From Candidatus Iainarchaeum sp. (GTDB taxonomy: Archaea; Iainarchaeota; Iainarchaeia; Iainarchaeales; CSSED10-239), in contig JAQVTI010000028.1 in the NCBI GenBank assembly GCA_028700115.1, forward strand, positions 1 to 5,357: a stretch of 5,357 nt of DNA, written 5' to 3'. Every line of letters starts with the position of its first letter. Position 1 is the first letter of the stretch. Below the pieces are notes generated by a model, which was given only the letters and a program-made list of their open reading frames with translations, did no database searches and was not told the origin of the DNA. The position numbers and the translations under genes were made by a program. Of the stretch, positions 151 to 5,314 are shown piece after piece.

Positions 151-311
151 GAGAAATAAACTCCCAATAATGTAAATCCAACACCTATTAATCCAATTAT
201 AATTCTATATCCAAATTTTGTGATGACCGTTGAAGGTAAAAATATACAACCAACTATCGCTATAAATCCTAAAAATACTGCAACTGCAGTGCCAGTTAAA
301 TTTTGATCCAT
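144..311 (-). CDS. Small hypothetical membrane protein, 55 aa, two predicted TM helices (absent from the ORF track)
   Basis: Manual minus-strand translation: ATG 311-309, TAA 146-144, giving MDQNLTGTAVAVFLGFIAIVGCIFLPSTVITKFGYRIIIGLIGVGFTLLGVYFSK. A GGAGG (CCTCC at 319-323 on plus) sits 7 nt upstream of the ATG. There are two ~20-aa hydrophobic segments. No family recognised. Confidence 0.6.
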   Translation of the reverse strand: MDQNLTGTAVAVFLGFIAIVGCIFLPSTVITKFGYRIIIGLIGVGFTLLGVYFSK

Positions 312-323
312 TTTCTTTCCTCC

Positions 324-416
324 AATTAATTATTGTCTTATATGTATCTTGAATCAATCAATTTAAATATGTTACCTTATGTTACATATATATCAAATAT
401 GTTACATTGTGATGTT
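324..416. promoter_or_regulatory. Divergent control region between the small minus-strand ORF and the wHTH gene, with phased direct repeats
   Basis: TATGTTAC is exact at 368-375, 378-385 and 398-405 (10- and 20-bp spacing). AAATATGTTAC occurs at 365-375 and 395-405. An alternating ATATATATC lies at 386-394, about 27 nt before ATG 417, and TGTGAT lies at 408-413. Confidence 0.45.
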
Positions 417-1184
417 ATGACTGAATTATTTAAAGAATTAATTAAACCAAATAGTCTTTCTGGAAAAATATATTTCTTATTATTAGAAAAACCAAAAAGA
501 ATAACCGAAATCTCAAAAATAATCTATACAGATAAAATACAATTGACGCCCATAAATAGAATTTTGCCTAACTTAGTTAAAGAAAAGATTGTTTCAAATT
601 GTAAATCTGACGATTCTGATTTAAGAAATAAATATTATATATCTAATATGTCGCCTATAGTTCAATTTTGCGAAGAGAAGATAAACGATCGCGAAAATAA
701 TTATATAAACAAAGAAGAATTAGATACACTAAACATAATCTTATCATCTAATTGGTTTAGATCCTTTTTAAATGAAAAAAATCGCGAATATCTGTTTCAT
801 AAAGATTGGGGCAATAATACAACAATTCCCTATTTGCCTTTTGATAATATTGGCAGTATAATAGAAGACATTGGAATTGTTTCAGCAACACTTTCAAGGA
901 AAATAAAGATTAATAAAAAAGTAAATTATAATGATATTAATAAGTTAAAAGATTATGACTTATTTGTTTCTCAAAATCAAAATAAATACACTAGTTCAGA
1001 TAAACAAAAAGTTAAAGCCATAATTAATAATGCAAAATTAAAATTAGGAAACTATAAAGACACAAATTATAGACTTGACTTGATTATTTCGGACCCTAGT
1101 TTTATACTTATGCCACCAGATTTAGCATTTAAGCTTGCTAAGGTTGGACACATCCCCTTAACGTTGTTTAATGCGATACGTTAA
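417..1184 (+). CDS. Winged helix-turn-helix (ArsR/MarR/TrmB-like) putative transcription regulator with an uncharacterised ~170-aa C-terminal domain
   Basis: The maximal ORF is 333-1184 with a TTG start. I prefer ATG 417 (MTELFKELIK...) for three reasons: it has TGTGAT 3 nt upstream, codons 333-416 consist of nucleotide-level direct repeats, and they overlap the promoter/RBS space of the divergent ORF. GKIYFLLLEKPKRITEISKII...INRILPNLVKEKIV...RNKYYISN has a helix-turn-helix-wing pattern. The C-terminal part was not recognised. Confidence 0.65.
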   Translation: MTELFKELIKPNSLSGKIYFLLLEKPKRITEISKIIYTDKIQLTPINRILPNLVKEKIVSNCKSDDSDLRNKYYISNMSPIVQFCEEKINDRENNYINKEELDTLNIILSSNWFRSFLNEKNREYLFHKDWGNNTTIPYLPFDNIGSIIEDIGIVSATLSRKIKINKKVNYNDINKLKDYDLFVSQNQNKYTSSDKQKVKAIINNAKLKLGNYKDTNYRLDLIISDPSFILMPPDLAFKLAKVGHIPLTLFNAIR

Positions 1185-1284
1185 AGTTGAAATAAATCTT
1201 AATATTTAAAAATTAAAAATAAACCATTTCTCTCTATCTTCTATTAACATAAACTTATAAATTCTAATAATACCTAATAAATAT

Positions 1285-2142
1285 ATGATACACTACTTTC
1301 AATACTTGACACAATTAGATTTAATTAAAAGTATTTTAAATAAAAATAAAGAAAATTCAAGAATTGCAATAATTTTAATGGATAATTGTATAGAATTAGT
1401 GCTTACTAATTATATATCTCAGAATTGTGGAAATGAAATATTACCGTATGATTTTAGTAAAAAGTTAGAAATCGCCAAAATACATAAAATTATAGATGCG
1501 GAAATGCAAAGTGTATTTTTGTTATACCACCATTATCGTAATATATTACAACACACAGGAGACTCTAAATCAGATTATATTTATAATAATTTAGAATTTT
1601 ATTTTAATAAAATTGTAGATACAATAACTAATATAGATAACAAAAGATTTTCTTATGAAATGAGAAATAAAGAATATAAAGCTCTATTTGAAAAATATAA
1701 TTCTAAACCATATACCGACTCTTATAATTACATAAAAGATACTTTTACAAAATTAAAATTCGTTTGTGAGAAATCAGATATACGAAATAACCTTAAAAAT
1801 ATGTTAAAAGAATTAATCGATAGTTGGAACGAACAGAGTAGTATGGCTTATGGAGTCAGCAAATTCCAAAATACGTCTGAATGCCTTGTTTATTGTTTTA
1901 AAAATCATTACAAAAAAGAAAATAAAGACTATATCTCCAAATTCGAGAAATATATTAAAACTGTAGATAAAATTAATTTAGAATTTAACAAAATTGATAC
2001 AACACAGAATAGTTTTTTTAATGACGTGCTACAATTAGAAACAAAAGTTCTATTTTTACTGGATTTAACTTATCCTGCATTTTGTTATATTAATTCTCAA
2101 ATTGATATGCAAATAGATAGGATTAGATTAGGCGAAGATTAA
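1285..2142 (+). CDS. Hypothetical all-helical protein with an N-terminal HEPN-like domain (Rx4H motif RNILQH)
   Basis: 285-aa ORF with ATG and TAA. LYHHYRNILQHTG (R85..H90, nt 1537-1554) matches the HEPN R-[N]-x3-H signature and is preceded by helical segments (IILMDNCIELVLTNYI). No SD-like element. TTATAAAT lies at 1255-1262, about 27 nt upstream. The coding call is solid; the function is tentative. Confidence 0.6.
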   Translation: MIHYFQYLTQLDLIKSILNKNKENSRIAIILMDNCIELVLTNYISQNCGNEILPYDFSKKLEIAKIHKIIDAEMQSVFLLYHHYRNILQHTGDSKSDYIYNNLEFYFNKIVDTITNIDNKRFSYEMRNKEYKALFEKYNSKPYTDSYNYIKDTFTKLKFVCEKSDIRNNLKNMLKELIDSWNEQSSMAYGVSKFQNTSECLVYCFKNHYKKENKDYISKFEKYIKTVDKINLEFNKIDTTQNSFFNDVLQLETKVLFLLDLTYPAFCYINSQIDMQIDRIRLGED

Positions 2143-2199
2143 AAACAACCCCAAATTATAGTTCGCCTTCTGCAAAAATTTCAGATTTTACATATAATC

Positions 2200-2270
2200 T
2201 TTTGTAAAAACTCAACAATTTATCAAAAATCGCCAATTTTACAAAATTTGAGGGTTTTAAAATAGTTTTG
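2200..2270 (+). repeat. Intergenic direct repeat, copy A (71 nt)
   Basis: TTTTGTAAAAACTCAACAATTTATCAAAAATCGCCAATTTTACAAAATTTGAGGGTTTTAAAATAGTTTTG aligns to 3002-3073 with 6 substitutions and 1 indel (65/72). It contains a perfect 10-bp inverted repeat, TTTTGTAAAA (2200-2209) / TTTTACAAAA (2237-2246). Confidence 0.85.
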
Positions 2271-2353
2271 GAAGAATGATTATTTGGGGATTCTAAACTA
2301 TCTACTAATAATAATAAAAATATATATCAAAAAAACAAAAATGATTTAATAAT

Positions 2354-2995
2354 ATGACCTTAATAAATATTTTAATTTTAGTATTTAGTTTAATTCTGTC
2401 TATATCTTTTGTTCTAGGAATTATTTTTTTACTAATATTTTTATTTATATTATATCCGGTGCTTTTAATAAGATATAATATATTTATTAAAAAGTATATT
2501 AGTAATTATAACCCAAAAGACACCAATATAAATTCTGTTATAATAATTAATCATCTATTTAAAGACAAAAAACACAAAAATAGTATAGTGGATAAATGTA
2601 AATATATTGTTGCTTGGGGAGTTCCAGAACTATTATCTAAATTAAAAAAATACAAAAGAACAATCGCCATATATGAGAATATTTCTAGTAAAACCTTTGA
2701 ACAAATAATGGATAATAAATATATAACAGAAGTTTACATTTTTAGTCATGGTCAAAGATTTGGTGTTGGATTATCAGATAAATTCTATAGGTATAAAAAT
2801 CTATTAAAAATAACCCCCAAAATTAAAAAGAATATAATCTGTCAGTTACATTGTGGTGGGCGGCGAAAGATGAAATCAACAGATATAAGTTTGGAATCAT
2901 TTGCAAAAAAATGTAAAATACACAATAGAGATGTGCTTCTTTTTGAAAATTGTTTTTGGATTTTATTTAAATTTGACAAATTTTATAATAAATAA
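2354..2995 (+). CDS. N-terminally membrane-anchored protein with a caspase/CHAT-like (clan CD) His-Cys dyad layout; function unproven
   Basis: 213-aa ORF. Residues ~3-38 are continuously hydrophobic. The remainder alternates strand and helix: SVIIINHLF, YIVAWG, TIAIYEN, EVYIFSHGQRFGVGLSD (His132, nt 2747-2749) and KNIICQLHCGG (Cys167, nt 2852-2854). Compare the caspase motifs IIINNxNF / SHG / QACxG. Only ~45 aa follow the Cys. Confidence 0.55.
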   Translation: MTLINILILVFSLILSISFVLGIIFLLIFLFILYPVLLIRYNIFIKKYISNYNPKDTNINSVIIINHLFKDKKHKNSIVDKCKYIVAWGVPELLSKLKKYKRTIAIYENISSKTFEQIMDNKYITEVYIFSHGQRFGVGLSDKFYRYKNLLKITPKIKKNIICQLHCGGRRKMKSTDISLESFAKKCKIHNRDVLLFENCFWILFKFDKFYNK

Positions 2996-3001
2996 GCTAG
3001 T

Positions 3002-3073
3002 TTTTGTAAAAACTCAACTTTTTCTCAAAAATCGTCAATTTCACAAAATTTGAGAGGTTTTAAAATTGTTTTG
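3002..3073 (+). repeat. Intergenic direct repeat, copy B (72 nt)
   Basis: TTTTGTAAAAACTCAACTTTTTCTCAAAAATCGTCAATTTCACAAAATTTGAGAGGTTTTAAAATTGTTTTG starts 7 nt after the ORF3 stop and ends 35 nt before the mrr ATG at 3108. Confidence 0.85.
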
Positions 3074-3107
3074 TTGCAGTTATAATATATAATAAAATGT
3101 GATTAAT

Positions 3108-4013
3108 ATGATTCCAGACTTTCAAGAATTAATGCTACCGCTACTTAAATTATTAAGTGATAAAAAAGAACACAATTTCTTAGATTTAATAAATATATTA
3201 AGTGATCAATATAAACTTACAGAAGAAGAAAAAAGTGCAAAGACAAGTGCTGGATTTACAATAATTGATAATAGAGTTGGTTGGGCAAAAACTTATTTAA
3301 AAAAAGCGAAATTATTAGAATATACTAAAAGAGGGTATTCTCAAATTACTGATAGAGGATTAGAAGTACTTTCTAAAAATCTTACGAAAATAGATGTTAA
3401 ATTTTTAGAACAATATGAAGAATTTAAAGAATTTAGATATATAAAAAATACAGATCAACCTCTTTCAACTACAAACATAGCAATCAATGATTCATCTTGC
3501 CAAAGTAAAACTCCTATTGAATTAATGGAAGATGGTTATAATTCAATTAATGCAAATCTAAAGCAAGAGCTATTAGATAAACTAAGAGAATATCCACCTG
3601 CTTTCTTTGAAAAAACAATATTAAAGTTATTAGAAAAAATGGGTTATGGTAAAGGAGAAGTTACTGGTAAATCAGGAGATGGAGGAGTTGATGGTATTAT
3701 TTACCAAGATAAACTAAAACTAGAAAAAATATATTTACAAGCAAAACGTTTTGCAGAAAACAATCCAGTAACTGCACACATGGTTAGAGATTTTGTTGGA
3801 GCATTAGAAGTAAATGGAGTAAATAAAGGAGTTTTCATAACAACTTCTAAATTCCCAAGAGATTCTTTAAGTAACATAAAAAGTCAAAAATCAATAAAAC
3901 TAATAGACGGCTATGAACTAGCAGACTTGATGATAGAGCACAATCTAGGAGTATCTATTGAAAATACATTTGAAATCAAGAAAATAGATTTAGACTTCTT
4001 TGATGAAGAATAA
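3108..4013 (+). CDS. mrr: Mrr-family type IV (modification-dependent) restriction endonuclease: N-terminal winged-helix (Mrr_N-like) plus C-terminal PD-(D/E)xK Mrr_cat domain
   Basis: The track ORF begins at GTG 3099. ATG 3108 (MIPDFQELMLPLLKLL, a typical Mrr N-terminus) has TGTGAT 4 nt upstream. The C-terminal FFEKTILKLLEKMGYG..TGKSGDGGVDGIIYQDKLKLEKIYLQAKRF...VRDFVGAL...KGVFITTSKF...IKLIDGYELADLMIEHNLGV is the canonical Mrr catalytic core (nt ~3678-3746). Confidence 0.9.
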   Translation: MIPDFQELMLPLLKLLSDKKEHNFLDLINILSDQYKLTEEEKSAKTSAGFTIIDNRVGWAKTYLKKAKLLEYTKRGYSQITDRGLEVLSKNLTKIDVKFLEQYEEFKEFRYIKNTDQPLSTTNIAINDSSCQSKTPIELMEDGYNSINANLKQELLDKLREYPPAFFEKTILKLLEKMGYGKGEVTGKSGDGGVDGIIYQDKLKLEKIYLQAKRFAENNPVTAHMVRDFVGALEVNGVNKGVFITTSKFPRDSLSNIKSQKSIKLIDGYELADLMIEHNLGVSIENTFEIKKIDLDFFDEE

Positions 4014-4015
4014 AT

Positions 4016-4525
4016 TTAGAATAAATCTTCCACTTTTAGATTTTTTCTGATTCTTTTAAATTCTGCATCTCCAGCATACATAAATATCAAAAGGAATATA
4101 CTAAGAACTACTAATACAAAAAATAAATAAGTAAGAATAGTAATCCACATATCTAATTTTAAAGTTGTATTAATAAATTCAAATGCTAATGTAAATATAG
4201 GACTTAAAGCTAATGAAATATAAAGAAAAATTAAGGTTTTCTTTTTCAACCAATTATTTTCTGCAGAATAATTACCATATAAATATGCTTTTATTTCTAA
4301 TAATCTTAGATTTAGTTTATTCTTTAGATCATCATCTATATTTCTTAAAGTTATAAAATATTCAAACTGAAATTTATACAATTCTACAATTGTGGGATAA
4401 TCTTTAACATTTGAAAGATTTAATCTAAACATATCATATTTCTGAATAGCCGGCAAAATTTCAGTAGTTAATTTTTCAGAATCATACTTTTGCATTTTTT
4501 CTAAATCATTAAAATTTACATTCAT
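4016..4525 (-). CDS. Hypothetical protein: ~95-aa helical N-terminal domain plus two C-terminal TM helices
   Basis: 169-aa ORF with ATG 4525-4523 and TGTGAT 3 nt upstream. Hydrophobic segments are TLIFLYISLALSPIFTLAFEFI and MWITILTYLFFVLVVLSIFLLIFMY. Its stop (4016-4018) lies 2 nt from the mrr stop (4011-4013). Confidence 0.7.
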   Translation of the reverse strand: MNVNFNDLEKMQKYDSEKLTTEILPAIQKYDMFRLNLSNVKDYPTIVELYKFQFEYFITLRNIDDDLKNKLNLRLLEIKAYLYGNYSAENNWLKKKTLIFLYISLALSPIFTLAFEFINTTLKLDMWITILTYLFFVLVVLSIFLLIFMYAGDAEFKRIRKNLKVEDLF

Positions 4526-4818
4526 TCAATCACAATTTCCTTTTTCCCATCTTTAATCCCATTAAAGATAAGATTATACTCATTTTCACTTAATTCAACC
4601 AAATTTTGATATTTATTATCTTCTTTAAGTAAAGTAAACTTATCTTGTAATTGTTTAGCAATTAATCCTTTTAGAGATAATAATACTGGTTTTAATTTAA
4701 CTTGATAAGGATATTTCTTTTTCCAATTATTAAATTCATCATTAACTAGTTTTTCTGCTTCAAATATTCCAAAGACTATCCCTTGTCCAAAATAAACAAC
4801 AATATCTCCTATAGATAT
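4522..4818 (-). pseudogene. Start-less 98-codon open frame, probably the 3' remnant of a gene (tentatively PUA-like/EVE-like beta-barrel protein)
   Basis: Manual translation: ISIGDIVVYFGQGIVFGIFEAEKLVNDEFNNWKKKYPYQVKLKPVLLSLKGLIAKQLQDKFTLLKEDNKYQNLVELSENEYNLIFNGIKDGKKEIVIE, stop TGA at 4524-4522. An in-frame TAA (4821-4819) lies immediately upstream. There is no in-frame ATG, and the only in-frame GTG/TTG codons are a few to ~30 codons before the stop. No N-terminal continuation exists in any frame further upstream. ATGA overlap with the next gene. Confidence 0.45.
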
Positions 4819-4846
4819 TTACTTCTTTTCCTATAAACTTTAAATA

Positions 4847-4968
4847 AAACCTTTAAAGTGGCTATTTTAAACTCTTTTCTTATACAATCATTTACTTTAA
4901 GAAAAAGATTATTTTTAAATCATCTGTGGTTAAATTTTTAATATTATAAGCCACTTTAAACCTTTAAG
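4847..4968. repeat. 12-bp perfect inverted repeat with an 85-nt spacer, inside ORF-free DNA
   Basis: TTTAAAGTGGCT (4852-4863) and AGCCACTTTAAA (4949-4960) are exact reverse complements. AACCTTTAA(A)G also occurs as a direct repeat at 4848-4858 and 4959-4968. Confidence 0.6.
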
Positions 4969-5241
4969 ATATTTTAAACTATAATCTAGAATGAATTTAA
5001 TTTTTTAGACATAAAATGACACAAAAGATATTAATAGACTTTAATTTTTATGTTATTCCTTTTATTATAATTATTAAATACCTAAACTTCTAATCTTAGA
5101 TACACTACTTTACAAAGATAGCATATTTTACCCACTTGTAAAAAATCTTTTTTTTAGTTATTGTTTAAAATTAGTTATTTTATACTTAATATAGACTTAT
5201 AAACACTTTTCAGTAAATAAAGACAGAAGCAAAAAGAAAGT

Positions 5242-5314
5242 AAGACTTGGAAGAAATATTCTGTGGTTTAAAGAAAATGATTAAGATGAAAAGAAAGATG
5301 TTTTTGTTGTTTTT
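5242..5314. repeat. Copies related to the 5'-end repeat family
   Basis: AAGACTTGGAAGAAATATTCTGTGGTTT (5242-5269) resembles AAGGACTAGAGA..AATTTTCTGTGGTTT (107-142), and the 11-mer TTCTGTGGTTT is exact at 132-142 and 5259-5269. GATTAAGAT...GTTTTTGTTGTTTTT (5279-5314) resembles GATTAAGATTAAGTGTTTTCTGTTGTTTT (64-87). Confidence 0.5.

Follow-up and report, generated by a model that had tools for sequence, protein, structure and literature searches.

A predicted membrane-anchored caspase-fold protein and a repeated intergenic element in a probable mosaic defence island of a DPANN archaeon

Introduction

Among the effectors of prokaryotic immunity, caspase-like proteases are coming to be seen as central. 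The known representatives, among them the TPR-CHAT protease ('Craspase') of type III-E CRISPR systems and the activators of bacterial gasdermins, are large, soluble and multidomain, and they are encoded within defined, conserved operons together with a sensor or a substrate. Caspases carry the motif QACRG, and their His-Cys spacing is about 42-48 residues. A different kind of membrane-bound proteolytic control is found in BlaR1/BlaI and MecR1/MecI, where a membrane sensor-protease is paired with a winged-helix repressor; BlaR1 itself is a zinc metalloprotease and carries its sensor domain outside the cell. Here, we describe a stretch of 5,357 nucleotides (nt; hereafter the window) from Candidatus Iainarchaeum sp., a tiny, symbiotic DPANN archaeon (assembly GCA_028700115.1, contig JAQVTI010000028.1), in which open reading frame 3 (ORF3, 2354-2995, + strand) is predicted to encode a minimal caspase-fold protein with a membrane anchor. 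Two copies of an intergenic repeat, which we call element E, bracket this gene.

A first-pass annotation, made from the letters of the window alone, had singled out four genes on the same strand between 417 and 4013 and proposed that a winged helix-turn-helix (wHTH) protein, a HEPN-like RNase, a membrane-anchored caspase-like protein and an Mrr restriction enzyme may belong to one defence module. Comparison with related loci leads us to another layout. On balance, we regard the region as a mosaic, recombining DPANN defence island of cassettes that are transcribed and inherited independently of one another, and not as one multi-gene system. New here are ORF3 as a variant of the caspase fold, which is minimal, tethered, missed by profiles and associated with DPANN defence islands, and the E-bounded architecture of the cassettes. 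There is also a practical warning: neither the four-gene module nor the HEPN label of ORF2 finds support in comparative tests. In the following, related loci that we fetched for comparison carry L numbers and related proteins carry P numbers.

Results

ORF3 belongs to an undescribed family with a predicted caspase fold

The window has a GC content of ~24% and is 99.98% identical to contig JAQUYT010000054.1 (5,745 nt) from the Ca. Iainarchaeum sp. metagenome-assembled genome (MAG) GCA_028691725.1; parts of it are also present in two sequencing-run assemblies. From the ATG at 2354, ORF3 encodes 213 amino acids (aa). The NCBI annotation gives a protein of 135 aa from a GTG at 2588 and leaves out the membrane anchor and the first core strand. 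The 78 codons added by the long form would stay open by chance with a probability of 5e-4, and the closest relative, P0006, aligns over all 213 residues.

All seven ORFs of the window were scanned against Pfam, PADLOC (PADLOC-DB v2), NCBIfam and PHROGs, and Mrr was the sole family recognised among them. The library check recommended by the first-pass annotation succeeded for this gene and left ORF1, ORF2 and ORF3 without a match in PADLOC-DB v2 at E<=1. For ORF3, the curated libraries held nothing, with no Pfam match at E<=1, and a word-indexed search of 5.8 billion proteins returned the protein itself and nothing else. An exhaustive phmmer search with the soluble part of ORF3 gave 27 cluster representatives at a threshold of E<=1e-3, one of which is the window's own NCBI-annotated gene, leaving 26 relatives.

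Members of this family are mostly 170-250 aa long. In an alignment of 24 sequences, in which pairwise identity goes down to 19%, a hydrophobic segment is present at the N-terminus of all members, H132, K159 and C167 (ORF3 numbering) are invariant, and G133, Q164, L93 and Y147 are near-invariant. The consensus motifs of the family are YIFGHG and FIAQLHCN, represented in ORF3 itself by SHG(132)...QLHC(167). Supplied with the family alignment, AlphaFold2 modelled ORF3 with a mean predicted local distance difference test score (pLDDT) of 93.3 and a predicted TM-score (pTM) of 0.87. The model starts with a membrane helix (residues 2-48), followed by an alpha/beta domain of ~150 aa. Within this domain, a strand at 126-130 runs into Ser-His132-Gly and a strand at 159-164 into His-Cys167; a fifth strand (residues 184-188) is the last one in the predicted sheet, which lacks a sixth.

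A Foldseek comparison of the model with the PDB returned caspases in all of the best 50 matches (caspase-1, -3, -7, -8 and -11; E from 5.5e-6 to 5e-5), with TM-scores of 0.36-0.42 that are normalised over the whole query, including the membrane helix of ~48 residues. Among the viral models in BFVD, an uncharacterised protein from an entomopoxvirus ranked first, with caspases and metacaspases from large DNA viruses at lower ranks. At the sequence level, the family profile placed IFGHG on the catalytic THG of coral caspase-3 in a comparison with PDB sequences, at a non-significant E of 0.81, and a Pfam scan of the 24 aligned members found no covering family and one marginal match to Peptidase_C14 (E=0.058).

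The alignment and the model support ORF3 as a membrane-anchored, minimal caspase-fold (clan CD-like) protein with His132 and Cys167 as the putative catalytic residues. A caspase-like protein with a membrane anchor and a His/Cys dyad is what the first-pass annotation had proposed for this gene, and the proposal has gained 26 relatives, a confident model and a uniform set of fold matches. Because there is no significant match to a curated clan CD family, ORF3 and its relatives should be filed as a new, previously undescribed caspase-fold family and not as members of C14. The basic residues R40, K46 and K47 come after the hydrophobic segment, which suggests, by the positive-inside rule, that the soluble domain faces the cytoplasm. 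A search of the IMG/VR viral contigs yielded neither members of the ORF3 family nor element E, so that a viral origin is unsupported, and a tblastn search with ORF3 gave no match in a plasmid collection.

Relatives of ORF3 are often found beside restriction genes

To place ORF3 in its genomic setting, nine contexts of eight relatives were read (P0006 in two settings), a sample that does not extend to the members on contigs of 66-311 kb. P0006, which is 48-51% identical to ORF3, is followed in L007-L010 by the gene of an MjaI-type restriction endonuclease on the same strand, 127 nt downstream; the same island also holds an N6_N4 methyltransferase, a SIR2_2-like gene, an SLFN-type helicase and a NERD fragment. 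In L011, the DNA downstream of P0006 is the 3' end of a convergent gene with a weak RE_endonuc domain. P0010, from another Iainarchaeum MAG (L016), stands between a cluster of Dam methyltransferase, PD-(D/E)xK and N6_N4 methyltransferase genes and a type III restriction-modification (R-M) system, and P0012 (L027) has a HARE-HTH/PDDEXK protein and a type III Res subunit three to four genes off. P0008 (L013, L014) is convergent with an intact 125-aa gene that we judge to be EVE/PUA-like, and P0009 (L015) has as its neighbour a protein whose PD...D-x-K-like motif was identified only by eye. On two 1-kb contigs, P0014 and P0021 have a DHH/DHHA1-like gene and an IDI-like gene upstream, both of housekeeping type, and the neighbours of P0011 on a 1.4-kb contig (L028) have no recognisable domains. 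In most of the contexts recovered, R-M or nuclease genes are adjacent or within about 3 genes. Within this small sample, the association is strong in the close relatives of ORF3 and not universal across the family.

A second recurrent neighbour is a small winged-helix gene of 78-82 aa immediately 5' of P0008, P0009 and P0010, with which it overlaps or from which it is separated by 1-25 nt. Its product matches the HVO_A0261_N and EarA-like models at 3e-6 to 6e-6. ORF3 and P0006 have no such partner gene. At the other end of P0012, a 254-aa gene (L027 736-1500) overlaps the end of the P0012 gene by 8 nt, suggesting an operon; it has no significant Pfam match (bacHORMA_1 weak, 0.095) and is unrelated to ORF2.

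The small wHTH genes directly 5' of P0008, P0009 and P0010 raise the question of whether the family consists of housekeeping or signalling membrane proteases, for instance a BlaR1/BlaI-like pair in which the protease cleaves a wHTH repressor, situated in variable regions that simply collect accessory genes. The DHH- and IDI-like neighbours of the distant members and the absence of any PADLOC match would be in line with this. We nevertheless consider it unlikely, as R-M or nuclease genes are close by in most contexts seen, ORF3 and P0006 lack the wHTH partner, and the P0006 cassette recurs at 98% identity or more in three contexts, as is typical of accessory or conflict genes. We prefer to see ORF3 in a defence island, the setting that had also been assumed in the first-pass annotation: the locus looks like one because it combines mrr with an EVE-like pseudogene and because relatives of ORF3 lie beside R-M genes.

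Element E brackets ORF3 and its closest relative

The two copies of E in the window lie on the + strand at 2196-2278 (3' end GGTTTTAAAAT) and at 2999-3082, the latter running into the mrr promoter. A sequence model (R1) built from seven copies detects them with 70.2 bits (E=1e-20) and 77.7 bits (E=5e-23) in cmsearch. Their starts are 802-803 nt apart, and an alignment of 84 nt, which contains one 1-nt indel, shows 83% identity between them; the 71-nt element that had been noticed before ORF3 and mrr is part of this longer repeat. The suggestion made at that time, that the element reflects shared regulation or history, is strengthened by its conservation in other genomes, where it brackets an ORF3 homologue as well. 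Copies are present in L006, L007 (four copies), L011, L012, L020, L021 and L026, the last three being contigs from digesters and activated sludge. Copy 2 is 98% identical over a 62-nt core to its counterpart in L006, another archaeal MAG. It is 89% identical to the L007 copy that precedes the MjaI gene, and the likeness continues through the proximal TATA region. Since the coding DNA beside that copy is only 66.5% identical between ORF3 and P0006, E is either under selection or recently exchanged. Judged from its sequence, E is an intergenic module that is conserved and present in multiple copies in this archaeal clade.

In L007, L011 and L012, copies of E flank the P0006 gene on both sides, as they do ORF3. 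The P0006 cassette is at least 98% identical across these three loci, yet the DNA downstream of it differs: homology to L007 stops inside E in L011 and just past E (...GTTGC) in L012. The stop codon of a co-oriented gene lies 0-8 nt before the start of most copies. In about half of all copies, the gene that follows is co-oriented as well; the remainder, which include truncated copies, border on convergent genes or on gene fragments, for example uvrC 3' ends and an EVE-like 3' end. The 3' end of E, GAGRGGTTTTAAAAT, contains the TATA-like box TTTTAAAA, which in related contigs also stands before a HIT gene and a HAD gene, at 27 nt from the ATG; the equivalent box before P0006 is 25 nt from the ATG. 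Because its 3' end holds a box that precedes housekeeping genes, E is probably a shared promoter with its upstream control region. The best reading of the dispersed copies is that they would act as junctions for cassette exchange as well, by homologous or site-specific recombination.

Folding gave no consistent structure for E. Single-copy folds differ between copies, with z-scores of +0.9 to -1.9, and RNAalifold predicted 0 pairs for the + strand and, for the - strand, a single AT stem of 9 bp that shows no covariation. E has no match in Rfam, and no integrase or recombinase was recognised in the window or in the neighbouring genes scanned, the contigs being short and not every locus having been scanned. 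A structured RNA or an attC/integron site was considered for E and rejected, as there is no conserved hairpin on either strand and no integrase was recognised in the window or the neighbouring genes examined.

A looser version of the integron idea, in which E is primarily the site-specific recombination site of a system of gene-plus-E cassettes and not a promoter module, is about as unlikely as the housekeeping explanation of ORF3. It would account for the position of most copies right behind a co-oriented gene, for the bracketing of ORF3 or P0006 in four contexts, for the truncated copies that abut uvrC or EVE-like 3' ends in L011, L020 and L026, and for the clustering of the truncation points near a conserved half-site, TCACAAAAT; moreover, integrons have reportedly been found in Archaea (PMC9668308). 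Against it stand the missing hairpin and the lack of an annotated or recognised integrase or recombinase in the window and the neighbouring genes examined, the conservation of E in sequence, unlike attC sites, and the match of its 3' end to the TATA box of housekeeping genes. Plain homologous recombination between 80-nt repeats would in any case give the identical pattern. We thus keep to a module that would serve both as promoter or control region and as exchange junction.

Several other repeats were seen around E and at the window ends. Two 57-nt direct repeats at 40-151 of the window consist of a purine-rich GAGAAGATTAAG followed by TTTTCTGTKGTTTT and share TTCTGTKGTT; a weaker copy lies at 5250-5313. 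Sequence of the GAGAAGATTAAG/TTTTCTGTKGTTTT type also occurs at L005 25-65, at L006 3690-3575 (- strand), directly before E, and at about 410-450 of L020 (- strand), where it is the end of a HIT gene (..ELEKIKV*) with a T-rich tail. These repeats are probably duplicated remnants of a gene end and terminator at recombination junctions. A GC-rich motif, TTTTCGGGGGGGTAGCTGTCCAGTGCGAA, precedes several copies of E (L020 ~1000-1040, - strand; L021 ~3285-3320, - strand; L007 4753-4783 and 7274-7304; L006 about 4075-4045, - strand) and is not present in the window; Rfam scans of its loci L007, L020 and L021 gave no match. Fragments of the uvrC 3' end of ~100 nt (RDEAHRFAITYNKLLRGKEI) adjoin truncated copies of E at L020 ~200-330 (- strand) and L026 680-790, and in L020 a piece of ~25 nt from the end of an EVE-like gene lies between E and the uvrC fragment, forming a mosaic of fragments at E. 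Finally, L006 2800-3300 contains three GC-rich repeats (GAGCTGAxCGAAACCGGCTC) that flank an AAA-ATPase gene, together with a duplicated C-terminal fragment of a metallohydrolase gene that is DUF45-like by eye, which suggests an insertion event.

A possible mode of action of ORF3

How could such a protein work? On the basis of the model, we infer that ORF3 is an active, membrane-tethered cysteine endopeptidase, in which the N-terminal membrane helix or hairpin would hold the caspase-fold domain at the membrane. By analogy with caspases, it may be activated by proximity or dimerisation, and because of its minimal size it probably needs to dimerise. It would then act either as a stand-alone effector of conflict or abortive-infection type or as a protease whose substrate is a small cognate wHTH regulator; the second option is considered because a small wHTH protein is encoded immediately 5' in three lineages.

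Less likely still than the alternatives above is a caspase fold that is inert or serves a non-proteolytic purpose, as a scaffold or ligand-binding domain comparable to the inactive caspase-like domain of Raptor. The small size of the domain with its five sheet strands and the absence of significant sequence similarity to any peptidase family would be compatible with this. Inactive homologues normally lose the dyad, however, and in the ORF3 family His132, Gly133, Gln164 and Cys167 are invariant or nearly so down to 19% identity, at positions after strands 3 and 4 that match those of the clan CD catalytic residues.

ORF1 and ORF2 do not travel with ORF3

The four genes of the first-pass annotation are all present in the list of ORFs: ORF1 (417-1184, 255 aa), ORF2 (1285-2142, 285 aa), ORF3 and mrr (3108-4013, 301 aa; alternative GTG start at 3099), all on the + strand and separated by 100, 211 and 112 nt, or 103 nt in the last case if mrr starts at the GTG. 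With a stop probability of 0.093 per codon at 24% GC, about one stop is expected per 11 codons, and an open frame of 213-304 codons has a chance of 1e-9 to 1e-13; the four ORFs are far longer than would be expected by chance at this composition. The start of ORF1 at 417 is backed by the alignment with two homologues. A TATA-like box begins 23-34 nt 5' of each of the four ATGs, compared with 5.9% of window positions that have such a box at equal distance by the same set of patterns; the resulting joint probability of ~1e-5 is indicative only, as the set was picked post hoc. As had been noted before, gaps of 100-211 nt and individual TATA boxes argue against a tightly coupled operon, and the arrangement fits separate, largely leaderless archaeal transcripts.

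ORF1 has two homologues, P0004 (76% identity) and P0005 (47% identity). Divergent from it lies ORF0 (144-311, - strand), which encodes a small hydrophobic protein of 55 aa with about two membrane segments by eye. A small hydrophobic gene occupies the same position and orientation beside the ORF1 homologues (56 aa in L005, 98-101 aa in L004), and sequence homology of these proteins to ORF0 is not demonstrable. The divergent promoter between ORF0 and ORF1 (365-411) has a TATA-like box starting at 386 and three ATGTTAC repeats, with five ATGTWAC matches over both strands. These five, within 369-407, are part of seven matches in the entire window, where 1.45 are expected and none of 200 shuffles reached seven; no ATGTWAC lies 5' of ORF2, ORF3 or mrr. 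ATGT(T/A)AC repeats are kept 5' of the 76%- and 47%-identical orthologues (L005 560-610 and L004 6340-6385), and are likely to be an operator for ORF1.

The wHTH pattern on which ORF1 had been named was seen again, together with weak matches to the winged-helix domain of RPC34/RPC6 in the PDB (E=0.14-0.48) and to a CII-like PHROG (0.0087); Pfam, PADLOC and NCBIfam gave no match. We regard an N-terminal winged-helix domain, which these matches support weakly, as probable; it would be followed by a C-terminal domain of no recognised family, and the protein probably autoregulates the ORF0/ORF1 pair. Its supposed control over ORF2 and ORF3 finds no counterpart in the data: the operator-like repeats are missing from their promoters, and behind the 76%-identical orthologue in L005 lies a different, unrelated gene beginning MRSIILKKKYNL. 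The wHTH protein that does travel with some ORF3 relatives is the different, 78-82-aa one encoded immediately upstream of them; in a hhalign comparison with ORF1, the expected region aligns at a non-significant E of 0.6. ORF1 is best read as the autoregulator of ORF0/ORF1, and the winged-helix protein and the divergent small membrane protein would form a self-contained pair joined by their shared ATGTWAC repeats.

A further protein of ~210-220 aa is common to the P0006 island (L007 2990-3661, - strand) and the contig of an ORF1 homologue (L004 4559-5191). It combines a membrane helix at the N-terminus with a beta-rich domain (..DKNCIH..YPFDP.YFVWSTTH.G....GSIYF.L...), and is another uncharacterised family of these variable regions.

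ORF2 has no homologue among 5.8 billion proteins in the word-indexed search; its sole database matches are itself, in one MAG and two sequencing-run assemblies. Searches by tblastn of the fetched related loci and of a phage collection were equally empty. ORF2 contains a single Rx4-6H motif, RNILQH at residues 85-90, which had led to its HEPN-like label. Shuffled versions of ORF2 contain Rx4-6H in 36%, Rx4H in 14% and R[NHQDS]x3H in 4% of cases. No HEPN model in Pfam, PADLOC, NCBIfam or PHROGs matches ORF2, nor do its split halves match one in Pfam at E<=10. The only match among PDB sequences is a PaREP1-domain protein (E=0.46), aligned to the C-terminal part away from the motif, and a single-sequence AlphaFold2 model consists of helices throughout, at a pLDDT of 37 that is too low for fold comparison. 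ORF2 is a lineage-specific ORFan, predicted to be all-helical, and calling it HEPN-like is a guess that is rather more likely to be wrong than right.

Proteins with an R(N)x3-4H-type motif do recur near ORF3 relatives (188 aa and 146 aa in L007, 82 aa in L016), and another of 243 aa lies beside copies of E in L026. These neighbours have no similarity to ORF2 in BLASTP comparisons, are unrelated to one another, lack Pfam support and vary in orientation. None of the nine contexts of ORF3 relatives holds a relative of ORF1 or ORF2, the co-localisation that the first-pass annotation had made decisive.

A single multi-gene defence system, in which a HEPN RNase (ORF2) and a membrane protease (ORF3) work together, perhaps under the control of ORF1 and with Mrr, is suggested by the adjacency and common orientation of the genes, by RNILQH in an all-helical protein, by the recurring motif-bearing neighbours and by the copy of E before both ORF3 and mrr, and is nonetheless very improbable: ORF2 has no homologue that could co-occur with anything and no HEPN profile match even at E<=10, its motif arises by chance in 4-14% of shuffles depending on how strictly it is defined, the motif-bearing neighbours are unrelated and variously oriented, the ORF1 repeats are confined to one promoter and the gene after the ORF1 orthologue differs, P0006 occurs without a relative of ORF1 or ORF2, and the genes are set apart by their gaps and separate TATA boxes.

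An ordinary Mrr enzyme and a patchwork right-hand flank

The fourth gene had been identified as mrr from its sequence, and the profiles confirm it. It matches Pfam Mrr_N, an N-terminal winged-helix domain for DNA recognition (PF14338, E=1.3e-26, model positions 1-86 of 87), Pfam Mrr_cat, a C-terminal PD-(D/E)xK nuclease domain (PF04471, E=3.3e-31, positions 2-115 of 115), and, end to end, the PADLOC model mREase_IV (PDLC03657, E=1.4e-60, positions 3-316 of 317). The stretch VDGII...LQAKR fits the D...QxK form of the nuclease motif. By sequence it is a full-length, ordinary Mrr type IV (modification-dependent) restriction endonuclease, which would act independently against modified foreign DNA. 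A single base distinguishes the window (T at 3771) from the deposited contig L001 (A at 4011), changing AACAAT to AACAAA and thereby Asn to Lys in Mrr.

Convergent with mrr lies ORF5 (4016-4525, - strand), a protein of 169 aa with C-terminal membrane segments. Pfam, PADLOC, NCBIfam and PHROGs contain no significant match to it, the related loci hold no homologue, and a 160-aa membrane protein in L007 is not similar to it; searching all fetched loci with all window proteins by tblastn likewise yielded no relatives of ORF0, ORF2, ORF5 or Mrr. Next to ORF5 is a pseudogene (4522-4844, - strand) that has lost its start and has in-frame stops upstream, with a TAA three codons before GDIVVYF. With the intact 125-aa gene convergent to P0008 (L013, L014) it shares 74% identity; it also gives a weak match to NCBIfam PRK00809 (0.0054) and is EVE/PUA-like in our judgement. 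An identical decayed copy is present in L007.

This pseudogene extends into a near-identical block shared with L007 (window 4655-5272, L007 613-1229), in which identity stops exactly at TTCTGTGGTTTAAA. Over 4655-5254 (L007 613-1211) the two are 96% identical (576 of 600 positions), in contigs whose neighbouring protein genes are only ~66% identical, and in L007 the block lies on the opposite flank of the ORF3 homologue. A part of about 430 nt (4845-5272) is free of ORFs; within it, TTTAAAGTGGCT (about 4852-4863) and AGCCACTTTAAA (about 4950-4961) form a 12-bp stem (RNA fold z=-2.6, + strand). The block could be an unrecognised non-coding RNA, a mobile segment or a recent exchange; it has no Rfam match, Rfam scans of the source contig and four related loci gave none, and a tRNA scan was likewise empty.

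Discussion

We set out from a row of four co-oriented genes and arrive at a locus in which each part has its own distribution. The layout of the ORF0/ORF1 pair recurs with its promoter repeats in two loci, in one of which an unrelated gene follows, ORF2 is confined to its own lineage, ORF3 belongs to a family that is found near a variety of restriction genes, and E occurs on both sides of ORF3 and P0006 and at the points where otherwise near-identical cassettes part. A mosaic defence island of independent cassettes is, on balance, the reading that best accommodates this. Several points nevertheless weigh against it. The contexts of ORF3 relatives number about nine and exclude the members on contigs of 66-311 kb; the distant members P0014 and P0021 adjoin housekeeping-type genes, so that the family may not be restricted to defence islands; the siting of E close to stop codons, with about half of the copies lacking a co-oriented next gene, fits a 3' or junction element equally well; and, because ORF2 is unique, a strain-specific functional partnership between ORF2 and ORF3 may be compatible with the comparative data.

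A bolder version, tentative and somewhat unlikely as a whole, goes further: the ORF3 family would consist of minimal, membrane-tethered caspase-type proteases of DPANN archaea that work alone as antiviral, abortive-infection or addiction effectors, carried as single-gene cassettes whose exchange within defence islands is mediated by E and which are placed beside whichever restriction enzyme a strain possesses. If true, this would add both a new type of archaeal defence effector and a new, repeat-guided mechanism by which defence islands are shuffled. A tethered caspase-fold domain of ~150 residues would approach the minimal version of the fold, and bracketing by E could explain how accessory and defence genes are reshuffled in very small genomes. 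The ORF3 family would also offer a tractable way into the defence biology of DPANN archaea, which cannot yet be cultivated on their own and whose defence repertoire is poorly known.

Finally, we would like to compare the parts of this locus with the systems that they resemble. ORF2 is like the HEPN RNases of abortive-infection and toxin-antitoxin systems in its all-helical prediction and its one R-N-x3-H motif, and differs from them in having neither profile nor structural support. The fourth gene has the full Mrr_N and Mrr_cat architecture of E. coli Mrr and mREase_IV, from which nothing notable sets this archaeal member apart. Element E is reminiscent of integron cassettes and their attC sites, in that single genes are bracketed by a repeat of ~80 nt, the same cassette appears in different contexts and the breakpoints fall at the repeat; unlike attC, E is conserved in sequence and not in structure, forms no attC-like hairpin and carries a TATA-like box.

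For ORF3, three comparisons are relevant. P0008, P0009 and P0010 resemble BlaR1/BlaI in that the gene of a tethered putative protease stands directly beside a small wHTH gene, whereas ORF3 is predicted to be a Cys/His protein of caspase fold, has no sensor domain and, like P0006, is encoded without a wHTH partner. With the CHAT-type immune proteases, it shares a predicted clan CD-type domain in antiviral neighbourhoods and a plausible role as a triggered effector; in contrast to them, it is minimal and tethered, and a small wHTH gene is the only recurrent partner, in some lineages. From the caspases, metacaspases and orthocaspases (MEROPS clan CD, C14), ORF3 departs in that neither Peptidase_C14 nor another Pfam family matches its sequence significantly, in a His-Cys spacing of 35 residues instead of about 42-48, in a domain of ~150 aa with no separate p10-like part, and in its N-terminal membrane anchor. 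It agrees with them in the predicted alpha/beta/alpha sandwich, in a His-Gly motif that closes strand 3 and a Cys that closes strand 4, with His coming before Cys, and in a Gln three residues before the Cys, QLHC in ORF3 and QACRG in caspases.

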